Numbered from the stretch's first letter, positions 44,535-47,704 are shown. The stretch is DNA of 64,000 nt from Acidimicrobiales bacterium (GCA_038255915.1 JBBSKY010000004.1:432-64431); one strand, 5' to 3'. Notes: generated by a model not told the origin, from the letters alone. Program-made: numbers and translations.

Positions 44535-45158
44535 ATGGGGTTCCCGCCGGATCTGCTGAACGAGTCCGAGGAGATCGTCCTCGACCTGCGGCCCCACTGG
44601 GCCAAGCTGTTCTTCCCGGTCGTGTGGGTGGTGGTGGCCATCGCGGCCACGGCCGCGTCCAGCATCCTGGGTGCCCTGCCCGTGGTCACCTTCGTCCTCC
44701 TGGCCATCCTGGCCGTGGCCGTCGCCCTGCTGCTGGCCCGCTACGTGCGGTGGACCACGACCAACTTCGTGGTCACCAACGAGCGGCTGATCCACCGCGA
44801 GGGCATCATCGCCAAGCGGGGCATCGAGATCCCGCTCGACCGGGTGCAGACCATCAGGTTCAGCCAGACCGTCTTCGAGCGGATGATCGGCGCCGGTGAC
44901 CTGCTCATCGAGTCGGCGGGCGAGACGGGCCAGAACACCTTCAGCGACATCCGCAAGCCGAGCGTGGTGCAGAACGTGATCTACCGCGAGATCGAGGCCT
45001 ACGAGAACCGGCGGGTCGACCGGATGGCCGGCGGCCGGCGCCCGACGTCGGGGGGGCTGTCGGTCCCCGAGCAGCTCGAGAAGCTGCACCACCTGCTGCA
45101 GCAGGGCGCCATCAACCCCGCCGAGTACGAGGCCCAGAAGGCCCGCCTGCTCGCCTAG
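44535..45158 (+). CDS. Bacterial PH domain membrane protein with SHOCT tail
   Basis: RPHW, FVVTNERLI..GII, IPLDRV; LEKL..L...G.I...EYEAQKARLL. Confidence 0.85.
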   Translation: MGFPPDLLNESEEIVLDLRPHWAKLFFPVVWVVVAIAATAASSILGALPVVTFVLLAILAVAVALLLARYVRWTTTNFVVTNERLIHREGIIAKRGIEIPLDRVQTIRFSQTVFERMIGAGDLLIESAGETGQNTFSDIRKPSVVQNVIYREIEAYENRRVDRMAGGRRPTSGGLSVPEQLEKLHHLLQQGAINPAEYEAQKARLLA

Positions 45159-45181
45159 GCCCTGAACGAACGGCCCGACCG

Positions 45182-45613
45182 TCAGAGCACCGTCAACGCC
45201 TCGGCGGCCGCGCCGCAGACGGCCGACGACACCACCGAGCGGTTGAAGGTCACGAACCGGCCGCCTCGGTGAACCGCCAGGGCCAGCAGATAGGCATCGG
45301 TCACCTGCCGGGGACCGTGCAGCCGGCGGCGGTCGATCACGAGTTGGTCGACCAGGCTGATCTCACAGGACCAGAACTCGTGGTGGGCCGTGGCGCACGC
45401 CTGTTCGAGCAGGTCGGCCACGACGGCGGGCGGCGCCGGGCTCGGGTACCGGGGTTGGCTCATGAGGCGCACGACACCGTTCTGGGTGATCGCGCACGAT
45501 GCCCAACCGGTGTCGACCTCGTCCTCCAACCAGGCTCGGGCCCGGAGGTGGTCGGCATGGTCGCGGTCGAGCAACGCCAGGAGGACGTTGACGTCGAGCA
45601 GAGCCCGACTCAC
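45182..45613 (-). CDS. vapC: VapC PIN-domain toxin
   Basis: LLDVNVLLAL.D.DH..H, CAITQNG, QVTDAYLLALA, FVTFN. Confidence 0.9.
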   Translation of the reverse strand: MSRALLDVNVLLALLDRDHADHLRARAWLEDEVDTGWASCAITQNGVVRLMSQPRYPSPAPPAVVADLLEQACATAHHEFWSCEISLVDQLVIDRRRLHGPRQVTDAYLLALAVHRGGRFVTFNRSVVSSAVCGAAAEALTVL

Positions 45614-46761
45614 TCCGGTTCGTCCTCGCGCAGCTGGTCAATCAGACCGTTGGTCACCAAAGGACCCCGCGGGGGCAGCGGTCGGAAGCCGAGGAACTGC
45701 TCGTCCAGTCGCTCCTCGTCGGGCGGGAGGAGGCGGGCGCCGGCGGAGGGCCGCACCAGCCACGACGCCCGGTCGCCCACGTCGATCCGGCCGGTGGCGC
45801 CGGCCTCGACCAGGGCGACGGCGCAACCGCCGAAGCCGGCCCCGGTGAGGCGGGCGCCGATCACGCCGCGCTGTCCGCTGAGGTGGTCAACGAGGGCATC
45901 GAGCGCCGGAGTCGACACCTCGAAGTCGTCCCGGAGGCTGGCGTGGCTGGCGGCGAGGGCCTCGGCCAGCACGGCCCGGCCGAACCCGCTGGCGGCCACG
46001 GCCCGGACCCGCTCGCACTCGCTCACCACGTGGCGGGCCCGCCGGCGCAGCATCGGGTCGGCCAGCCGCTCGACGTCGTCTCGGCGGGCCCGGGGGAGCG
46101 GCCCGACCAGGAGGGCCGCCGACTCGCAGTCGGCCCGCCGCTCGGCATAGGCCGACCCGGCCAGCGTGCGGGCCTGACCCGAGTGCACCACCAGCACCTC
46201 GATCCCCGAAGGCAGCGGCACCGGGGTGACGGCGAGGGTGGCGCAGTCGATGAGCAGGGCGCAGCCGGCGACGCCCGCCGCCGAGGCCAGCTGGTCCATA
46301 ACCCCGCAGGGCACGCCGCTGGCCCGCTGCTCGGCCCGCTGGCCGAGGAGGGCCAGCTGGACGGCGTCGCCGCGGAAGCCGAGAGCCAACGCCACCGCCA
46401 GCTCGAGGGCGGCGCTGGACGACAGCCCGGCCCCGACCGGCAGGGTCGTCTCCACCGTGCCCCGGCCCCCTGCGACCCGGTTCGAGCCGCCCCGCACCTG
46501 CACCGGCCCGGCACCGAGCTCGGCCACGACTCCGGCCACGTAGCGGGCCCAGGGTGGTTCCACGCCTGCCGCGTCCTCGACCTCGCTGGCCACCTCGGCC
46601 ACCCCTGGCTCGGCCGCCGAGGTGAGGCGCACCACCCGGCCCCCGGGGGCGAACCGGACTGTGGTGCCGAGGTCGATCGCCATGGGCAGCACGGGACCGC
46701 CGGCGTAATCGATGTGGTCGCCGATGAGGTTGACCCGCCCCGGCGCCCAGGCCGAGATCAC
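45610..46761 (-). CDS. galK: Galactokinase with C-terminal VapB-antitoxin-like extension
   Basis: APGRVNLIGDHIDY, PVGAGLSSSAA, CGVMDQ, GARLTGAGFGGC; extra tail GFRPLPPRGPLVTNGLIDQLREDEPE. Confidence 0.9.
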   Translation of the reverse strand: MISAWAPGRVNLIGDHIDYAGGPVLPMAIDLGTTVRFAPGGRVVRLTSAAEPGVAEVASEVEDAAGVEPPWARYVAGVVAELGAGPVQVRGGSNRVAGGRGTVETTLPVGAGLSSSAALELAVALALGFRGDAVQLALLGQRAEQRASGVPCGVMDQLASAAGVAGCALLIDCATLAVTPVPLPSGIEVLVVHSGQARTLAGSAYAERRADCESAALLVGPLPRARRDDVERLADPMLRRRARHVVSECERVRAVAASGFGRAVLAEALAASHASLRDDFEVSTPALDALVDHLSGQRGVIGARLTGAGFGGCAVALVEAGATGRIDVGDRASWLVRPSAGARLLPPDEERLDEQFLGFRPLPPRGPLVTNGLIDQLREDEPE

Positions 46762-46837
46762 GGTGCCGACACAGGGACGCCAGCGTCGCCGAGATGCTCT
46801 CCGACGAGGTCGAACCAGTCCGGCGAGGCCACCGCCG

Positions 46838-47704
46838 TCAGGCCCCGGGCAGGGCCCGCAGCCGGGCGGCGGCGTCCTCGGGCGACACCGGGTTGAAGTA
46901 CACCCCGCTGCCCAGCTCGCCGGCGGCCACGAAGCGGGGCGTGCCCGGTGCCCGCAGGAGCGGGGCGATGTGGGCGTGGAGGTGGGCCAGCGGCCACTCG
47001 CCGGCGTCGGAGGGCCGCTGGTGCCACCACAGCATGTAGGGCATCGGGGCGTCGAACAGCTGATCGAGTCGCGCCAGGGCGTCAACCAAGATCTCGGCCA
47101 GCGCCGTGCGCTGCTCCTCGTCCAGGGCCGGAAGCGACTGGATGTGGCTGGACGGCGCCACCCGCAGCTCGAAGGCCCAGGCGCTGGCCTCGGGGCACCA
47201 GGCCCGCCAGGGGCCCGACTCGCTGACGACCGTGCGCTCGGGCGGCGTCTCGCATAGAGCGCAGCGTCCCAGCGTCAGCTCGCGCAGCGGCGCCTGGGGC
47301 ACCTCGTCGAAGGCGTAGGCCTGGCCGTGGGGATGGTCGATGGTGGCGCCCACCTCGGCCCCCCGGTTCTCGAAGAGCAGGACGTAGGCGACCCCTTCGA
47401 GGGCGCCCATGGCCACGGTCCGGTCGATCCACAGGCCGACGACCCGGCGCACCCCCTCCACCCCCAGCTGCCAGAGGGCGACGCTGTGCTCGGGGGAGTA
47501 GAGGAGCACCTCGGCCCGGTCCTTGCCGAGCGGCGGCCACCGGTTCGGGAACCAGCGGACGACGTAGGGCTCGGGCGCCTCGAGGCCTCCAGGGCAGAAC
47601 GGGCAGCCGCTGGCCGGCCGGTTGGGGCGGCCCTGACGAGCGCCCGTGACCACCACCTGAGCCCGCGTCAGCCGATCGAGCCGCACGTGCGGACCCTCTG
47701 CCAC
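46838..47704 (-). CDS. galT: Galactose-1-phosphate uridylyltransferase (HIT superfamily)
   Basis: CPFCPG, FENRG..VG.T..HPHGQ, PE.AAARLR. Confidence 0.92.
   Translation of the reverse strand: MAEGPHVRLDRLTRAQVVVTGARQGRPNRPASGCPFCPGGLEAPEPYVVRWFPNRWPPLGKDRAEVLLYSPEHSVALWQLGVEGVRRVVGLWIDRTVAMGALEGVAYVLLFENRGAEVGATIDHPHGQAYAFDEVPQAPLRELTLGRCALCETPPERTVVSESGPWRAWCPEASAWAFELRVAPSSHIQSLPALDEEQRTALAEILVDALARLDQLFDAPMPYMLWWHQRPSDAGEWPLAHLHAHIAPLLRAPGTPRFVAAGELGSGVYFNPVSPEDAAARLRALPGA

Follow-up and report, generated by a model that had tools for sequence, protein, structure and literature searches.

The closest described relatives of the locus treated here are vapBC toxin-antitoxin (TA) systems, which combine a PIN-domain toxin with an antitoxin carrying a ribbon-helix-helix (RHH) domain. 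For VapBC26 of M. tuberculosis, a passage of PMC5737657 describes that the flexible C-terminus of VapB blocks the toxin's active site and that the N-terminal RHH domain binds DNA; in the same toxin the fourth acidic residue is situated away from the metal, and the catalytic site is formed by three acids. According to a section of PMC4229260, the fourth acid of PIN proteins is almost always an Asp, located in the motif L/V-X-S/T-X-D, other PIN proteins become inactive when it is mutated, and H. influenzae VapC1, in which it is an Asn, requires a Glu three residues further on. As stated in part of PMC6118392, 21 of 45 VapCs were toxic when tested and many were not. Here, we describe a locus in a stretch of 64,000 nucleotides from an Acidimicrobiales bacterium (GCA_038255915.1, JBBSKY010000004.1:432-64431; the window in the following), in which the galactokinase gene galK continues in frame into the C-terminal half of a VapB antitoxin and is directly followed by vapC. 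The graft would rely on the division of labour known from VapBC26, with neutralisation by the C-terminus and DNA binding by the RHH domain. We assign a probability of roughly 0.6 to the reading that the locus represents a passenger vapBC cassette in decay, of which the front was deleted, the neutralising tail was kept on GalK, and the toxin is likely weak or dead.

GalK runs past its normal end into 36 codons (45720-45613), as stated in the preliminary description and with the sequence given there, except that the first two residues, D-E, belong to the galK side, so that the antitoxin-derived part starts at approximately 45714 (residue 350). From this residue on, the tail is identical to the antitoxin P0004 at 32 of 34 positions. 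When residues 342-383 were compared with short proteins, seven of eight candidates matched, all with a length of 72-81 amino acids; six of the matches start with M/V-RTT, and the best of them, P0004, has an N-terminal RHH-type start. Judged from these similarities, which bear out the previously noted resemblance to VapB antitoxins, the cognate VapB is the source of the GalK tail, which represents its C-terminal half. In 75 intact antitoxins, alignment columns 1-39 and 56-81 are conserved and columns 40-55 are variable; in the fusion, columns 1-47 including the RHH domain are gone, and the conserved block of columns 56-81 is whole. An intact vapB (86 amino acids) next to a vapC with the motif TFD was found at a different site in genome G004 of the same genus, with 84% DNA identity from the tail onward, although the RHH-family Pfam matches of this VapB are weak and below cut-off. 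The motif GCATCnGATG, a putative operator of this vapB family, lies at most 30 bases upstream of the start in 44 of the 75 intact vapB genes; it was not found in the 64-kb window, in which 0.42 occurrences would be expected.

A complex model of VapC with GalK residues 344-383 agrees with the proposed interaction of tail and toxin and scored 0.73, compared to 0.02 for the best control, at a mark passed by 116 of 157 solved pairs and, among 215 mismatched pairs, by 2. At least 92% of the contacts are the same between runs, the predicted local distance difference test score (pLDDT) of the partner is at least 70, and all modelled contacts lie in the captured part (residues 354 to 381, touching VapC residues 8-9 and 123-124). 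The tail is thus predicted to still bind VapC, a pass for such a textbook VapB-VapC pair, built on our own alignments, indicating likeness and not measured binding by this copy. One of the 58 rows in the alignments behind the VapC model, the comparison with cluster representatives and the complex model is locus L153 of the unpublished genome G785.

VapC itself is assigned to TIGR00028 (119.3 bits versus a cut-off of 73.6) and to PF01850 (E value 1.4e-09), and its model adopts a PIN fold (pLDDT 95.7; VIA Z 15.4, root mean square deviation 2.5 and 135 aligned residues for 7vwo_A). Searches of PDB sequences with VapC, with the VapC alignment and with the tail alignment gave no match. Among 80 VapC relatives, picked by similarity to the window VapC, position 124 is occupied by D in 79 and by E in one case; the window VapC reads TFN at residues 122-124. 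This deviation had been a caveat in the preliminary description and is not only borne out but central. Position 127, where a compensating Glu would be expected, is a Val in the window and acidic in none of the relatives. For L156, one of the vapC loci, the fourth-acid column was read as Asp from the alignment. The comparison with individual strains is based on contigs from 7 of the 22 listed sequencing runs. Runs X3, X5 and X7 (one contig each from two studies, one of them below depth 5) carry the Asp codon, with a C at position 45244 of the plus strand; the X1 contig lacks an Asp codon at residue 124, as does the window. D7 and D106 are invariant in the relatives and present in the window VapC. 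At position 44, where the window has Q, 45 of the relatives have Q, 34 have E and one has V, and D16 and D18 are conserved but not canonical sites. Two of the four canonical acids are thus left, fewer than the three or four conserved acidic active-site residues of the family definition. Due to N124 without a compensating Glu and Q44, by analogy with other PIN proteins, this VapC is likely weakened or dead with low RNase activity. An active toxin, as initially assumed, is not supported, given an Asn at a position that is acidic in all 80 relatives and in each of the three contigs of sister strains that include the codon.

The deletion origin proposed in the preliminary description fits the alleles of related strains. 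In case of X2, contig 9 joins galK (45711) to the convergent gene for a PH-domain protein (45159) with eight letters in between and no cassette, at 26 differences from the window in 769 letters; contig 29 of X7 resembles this cassette-free allele. Contig 26 of X6 matches 45432-45714 with nine differences and then departs into LTGRVTPGSD, the vapB linker as in P0006, and a contig of X7 likewise departs at 45708 into vapB-type sequence, so that in these two contigs the tail is preceded by vapB sequence of the LTGRVTPGSD or GRVTRGSGEQ type. Contig 17 of X4 comprises the tail, vapC and the end of the PH gene, with 230 non-galK letters upstream. Contig 21 of X5 (360 letters, depth 5) contains 121 galK letters and rejoins at 45715 with 36 letters; the approximately 200 unseen letters between galK and tail leave room for the galK end, a promoter and vapB codons 1-47, and this contig appears to represent the pre-deletion allele. 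Empty, intact and fused alleles are all present in related soil strains. Because sister strains show both the cassette-free site and the tail behind a vapB front, a deletion at short homology likely made the fusion. The galK end of X2 and the vapB of X6 have GAGC in common at 45714-45711, the letters on the two sides of the junction being taken from X2 contig 9 and from a loose end in X6, that is, from sister strains and not from an ancestor.

According to the decay reading, a mobile vapBC cassette would have occupied the space between galK and the convergent PH gene; related strains have alleles that contain the cassette and alleles that lack it, from which the insertion as such is deduced. 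A deletion of about 190 bases at the 4-base repeat would then have joined galK codon 349 to vapB codon ~48 in frame and removed the promoter and the DNA-binding half. The junction is seen; the size of the presumed deletion is estimated from the distance of about 200 letters between galK and tail in X5 contig 21. As a consequence, vapC would be left without autoregulation and a promoter of its own and be transcribed together with galT and galK, coupled by the overlap of stop and start, and the captured block would, according to the model, neutralise any VapC made. Asp124 is replaced by Asn in this strain, whereby most RNase activity was likely lost, as judged from other VapCs. The two events may have occurred in either order; if the deletion preceded the exchange, the in-frame tail would have bridged the gap.

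The sequence of the junction was checked on assembled contigs, and within this limit it stood. One 1,364-letter contig of X1, possibly the source run, covers 44981-46345 including the junction at depth 45.9 with 0 mismatched letters, neighbouring contigs having depths of 43-56; the sole gap, a one-base difference from the window, lies at 45164 between vapC and the PH gene and outside of both. An assembly chimera of the metagenome-assembled genome might be suspected, since the assembly consists of 118 contigs and the exact junction was found in one run only and as a contig only. Due to the uninterrupted coverage in X1, the lack of a listed joint at this position, four shared junction bases being too few for a repeat-driven misjoin, and the similar fusion P0003 from another source, we regard this as extremely unlikely. 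A different route to the same arrangement would be the direct recombination of a 5'-truncated cassette onto the galK end, without an intact intermediate in this lineage, from a donor strain with vapBC beside the PH gene, by homology at the PH gene and microhomology at galK. Donor-type (tail-vapC-PH) and recipient-type (galK-PH) alleles both occur in soils and graft points vary in other proteins, which would suit this route; since X5 contig 21, at depth 5 and with the intervening letters unseen, is apparently the expected pre-deletion allele, we consider it unlikely.

No carrier element of the cassette was found in the plasmid and viral-contig sets searched (P0004 against plasmids, the VapC alignment against viral contigs). 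The site is variable in the genus: galT directly follows the PH gene in G001 and G003, and foreign-looking DNA is located there in G004. From these arrangements, the position after the PH gene looks like an insertion hot spot. In G004 (L230:150-1720 on contig C22), foreign-looking genes for secreted-type proteins take the place that vapC has in the window.

GalK possesses the galactose-binding signature, the N- and C-terminal GHMP domains and motifs and a complete fold, and is encoded next to galT; against NCBIfam it scored 215.3 bits with TIGR00131, just below the cut-off of 226.65, and below the cut-offs of the PRK models as well. It extends 79 amino acids beyond the LTGAGFGG motif, compared to 34-66 in the 98 of 109 other galK loci in which this length was readable. 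None of these 109 loci has a match to the tail or to vapC, and the GalK-tail fusion is rare among galK loci. The galK of G004 has no tail; the closest galK (G002, 90% identical) runs off the end of its contig, in a genome of 67% completeness, and is uninformative in this respect. A metagenome scan with the C-terminal half of GalK, covering 2 of 64 parts, returned distant galKs. The fusion recurs in P0003, a GalK of 376 amino acids on one contig of the European Nucleotide Archive, which is 91% identical and also ends in the tail. Its junction reads EEELLGFRP and the galK end of X2 reads DEELL, which fits a separate junction a few codons away and an apparently independent fusion; alternatively, the X2 allele could be a later loss from a P0003-like fusion. 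With 0 of 109 other loci and one further fused protein with a different junction, the fused part was not kept as a regulatory part across the galK lineage.

These observations bear on the earlier idea that the fusion ties RNase activity to sugar status, i.e., that binding of galactose or ATP, or the abundance of GalK, controls the release of VapC. It is true that vapC is situated downstream of galT and galK in the same orientation, with the galK stop overlapping the vapC start, and that the fusion apparently arose at least twice at galK. In the GalK model, however, pLDDT is 81-99 in blocks up to residue 350 and 42-51 from residue 351, so that the tail, covered by just 2 of the 59 alignment rows, appears in the model as an appendage of low confidence behind a complete fold. 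Encoded on one transcript, toxin and antitoxin would moreover increase and decrease in parallel, the toxin is probably impaired, the fusion was not kept in the genus, and the same tail was found on unrelated proteins. Nothing supports a sugar-sensing toxin, and we rate it as very unlikely; that the fusion makes galK addictive is not supported either.

The tail was also observed on other proteins. When a tail profile was compared with proteins of more than 142 amino acids, 7,990 candidates were scored and 21 of them matched. The RHH domain is complete in 12 matches and reduced to its last helix, preceded by an AAA domain, in two; the remaining seven have the tail only. The partners in the latter are GalK, HEPN, MazF, a flavin adenine dinucleotide (FAD) oxidoreductase (two clusters), a dienelactone hydrolase and one doubtful open reading frame (ORF). 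Among the best 150 of 376 cluster representatives, RHH was recognised in 71, the upstream part was too short to tell in 59, the tail was preceded by at least 45 residues without RHH in 15, and five have part of the RHH domain. Pfam names the upstream part in 6 of 24 scanned proteins lacking a full RHH, and graft points range from inside the RHH domain to the edge of the conserved block. Cluster representatives favour oddities and were read without genomic context, some of them possibly reflecting wrong starts or misassemblies. Two graft types are each present in a pair of proteins that have diverged to about 85% identity (P0028/P0029 and P0022/P0023). In each pair, 1 of 24 differences falls in the tail, which is not a significant extra conservation compared to the bodies (P 0.21 and 0.09). 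The fusion of an AAA kinase to the tail is common to P0022, which is recorded on a 6.76-Mb contig, P0023 and P0082, the last of which kept the tail and lost most of the AAA domain.

At the DNA level, 115 distinct tail loci were compared, 80 of them collected by VapC likeness, the others being the window and loci from samples of 1,400 genomes; these tallies include the unpublished genomes G173, G070 and G785, and no claim is based on these alone. An intact RHH is present in 105 loci, four lie at a contig edge, and six lack a full RHH (the window, L173, L206, L240, L244, and L251 at a contig end). A broken vapC was found in two of the six (L240, L244), and a full vapC is absent in 8 of the 105 loci with intact RHH; decay is common in this vapBC cassette. 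In case of L173 (1768-2929), an AbrB-like antitoxin gene is followed by a PIN toxin gene ending in the VapB tail and then by vapC, so that, from the gene order, the antitoxin block for the second toxin appears to be part of the first. In L206 (2234-2929), a VapC with D7, D106 and D124 is preceded by the tail, which lacks the RHH and is part of no evident gene frame; read from its sequence, this locus is a counter-example to strict in-frame capture. In L244 (1291-1900, minus strand), the tail is located behind a different N-terminal domain, also seen in P0172, next to a frameshifted vapC.

Considering these recurrent grafts, the main rival to the decay of the cassette is a captured antitoxin that still works: VapC would still be toxic, the GalK tail would be its required antitoxin, and the cell would be harmed if galK were lost or silenced; capture in frame would then be the main survivable way to lose the vapB front and hence recur. 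This is in agreement with the retention of the whole conserved block, the complex model with contacts confined to the captured part, the lack of a second close copy of the tail-type antitoxin in the 95% complete assembly, the matches with the tail only or the last RHH helix, the L173 arrangement before an intact VapC, and the two persisting graft types. Several observations weigh against decay in particular. The tail keeps 13 of 14 near-invariant residues, vapC is full length with all other columns that are invariant in the 80 relatives unchanged, D7, D106 and D124 are intact behind the graft in L173, and P0003 exists as a second, apparently independent in-frame fusion at galK. Furthermore, since the fourth acid of VapC26 lies off the metal site, D124N need not abolish activity. 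A recent event explains the good preservation of the tail and of the remainder of vapC equally well. The state of the acidic residues at positions 44, 124 and 127, the L206 tail in no evident frame before an intact VapC, the lack of significant tail conservation in the persisting pairs, and a complex score that, for a textbook pair, indicates likeness and not binding by this copy speak against a working antitoxin, which we consider doubtful. The recurrence is biased as well and does not show selection, because protein searches detect in-frame grafts only.

A broader version, a selected capture of antitoxin tails, may be put forward only tentatively beside decay: a 26-residue block would have been grafted repeatedly onto upstream genes (GalK twice, HEPN, MazF, FAD oxidoreductase, dienelactone hydrolase, AAA kinase, nucleotidyltransferase and PIN toxin), with the host proteins becoming the sole antitoxin. 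As part of the same tentative claim, the present locus would be a late stage with a since blunted toxin. If true, genes would be addictive as long as the toxin lasts, and control of the toxin would pass to the promoters of the captured genes; if the grafts are selected, a portable antitoxin tag of 26 residues could make ordinary genes addictive and provide a route to gene stabilisation. If the locus is a decaying cassette, as we favour, it gives a snapshot of how a chromosomal TA system is lost without killing its host, by losing regulation, keeping the tail and blunting the toxin. The single locus is well supported, as an event at the level of strains that is likely transient. What was unexpected, and is worth following, is that one short antitoxin block has been grafted repeatedly onto genes unrelated to each other. 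In full-text literature searches, by which subscription journals are mostly uncovered, neither a GalK-VapB fusion nor a recurrent capture of tails was found described, and the same holds for such a route to gene stabilisation.

The features of the locus are compiled in Table 1. The window is situated on contig C4 of an assembly of 2.9 Mb in 118 contigs with 72.7% GC and 95% completeness; the closest named vapC loci belong to Acidimicrobiales, and the best-matching sequencing run is a soil metagenome. GalT scored 103.7 bits with TIGR00209 (cut-off 102.1). A second, distant galT (31% identical) is located at C27:21406-22362, and galK is the only copy found by tblastn of the genome.

Table 1. Features of the galT-galK-vapC locus, with positions counted from the first letter of the window.
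Feature	Position	Strand	Remarks
galT, galactose-1-phosphate uridylyltransferase	46838..47704	-	First gene of the likely transcription unit; Pfam PF01087/PF02744
galK including tail, 383 amino acids	46761-45610	-	Ends in VapB-derived residues
galK body, residues 1-349	45715..46761	-	PF10509, PF00288, PF08544
Presumed junction, 4-base microhomology GAGC	45711..45714	-	Common to galK end and vapB linker
Captured VapB C-terminal half, GalK residues 350-383 and stop	45610..45714	-	Eight linker residues and whole conserved toxin-binding block
vapC, PIN-domain toxin of TIGR00028, 143 amino acids	45182..45613	-	D7 and D106, but Q44 and N124
AAC codon (Asn124), fourth acidic position	45242..45244	-	GAC in sister contigs
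Convergent PH-domain/SHOCT membrane gene	44535..45158	+	PF03703, PF09851; fixed flank of the variable insertion site

The galK TGA (45612-45610) overlaps the vapC GTG (45613-45611) as GTGA, which confirms the overlap reported before; the frame upstream of vapC that overlaps the toxin start is galK's own, and the same overlap occurs in most intact vapBC loci. As had also been noted, neither a separate antitoxin ORF nor, at the junction, an internal start was found. By eye, the in-frame GTG, CTG and TTG codons near the junction lack a well-spaced ribosome-binding site. The sole candidate start in the tail near a GAGGAG, a CTG three bases away, was rejected on inspection. The GC content at third codon positions is 0.79 in the tail (34 codons), 0.89 in vapC and 0.92-0.99 in five flanking genes, a gap too small to weigh. 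A scan for sigma-70 promoters and terminators found nothing, which is uninformative since none are expected at 73% GC. The galT-galK gap is spanned by an open frame of 24 codons (46832-46758, minus strand), the stop of which overlaps the galK start, and one X6 contig has 10 extra letters at 46763-46764, near this frame. Elsewhere in the genome, at least three further vapBC-like pairs occur (C32:22714, C12:6082 and C26:27124); two of the pairs were read and have TLD motifs and separate antitoxins.

Compared to known systems, the locus is closest to the TIGR00028 (Mtu_PIN_fam) vapBC pairs with an RHH VapB, such as the G004 pair and P0004, with which it has the VapC family, the antitoxin block and the GTGA overlap in common. 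In contrast to these, the RHH domain, the operator-like motif and presumably the promoter are gone, the tail is situated on GalK, and Asn occupies the fourth acidic position. As far as the model goes, the pair would work like a type II TA system at the level of binding, without a DNA-binding domain and a full active site. With the M. tuberculosis pairs 7vwo, which we take to be VapBC43, and VapBC26 (5x3t), the PIN fold is shared at an identity of only 15-19%. VapC25, VapC33, VapC37 and VapC39 presumably belong to TIGR00028. A part of PMC5175351 describes these four toxins as tRNA-Trp cutters. Like the window VapC, H. influenzae VapC1 (L-X-S/T-X-N plus E120) has Asn in place of the fourth Asp; unlike in VapC1, position 127 is Val, none of the 80 relatives is acidic there, and the family keeps Asp. 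Pneumococcal PezA, in a passage of PMC4803016 a repressor fused to an epsilon-like domain, is similar in that a module neutralising the toxin is attached to an N-terminal part of foreign origin. PezA represents an established and conserved system with a DNA-binding partner, whereas in the window a metabolic enzyme takes this role in a fusion that is recent and of patchy occurrence. The short repeat, the strain-level distribution and the damaged downstream gene are those of microhomology deletion scars that fuse neighbouring genes in frame; unlike in such scars, the retained piece is a complete, presumably functional module, repeatedly captured by unrelated genes.

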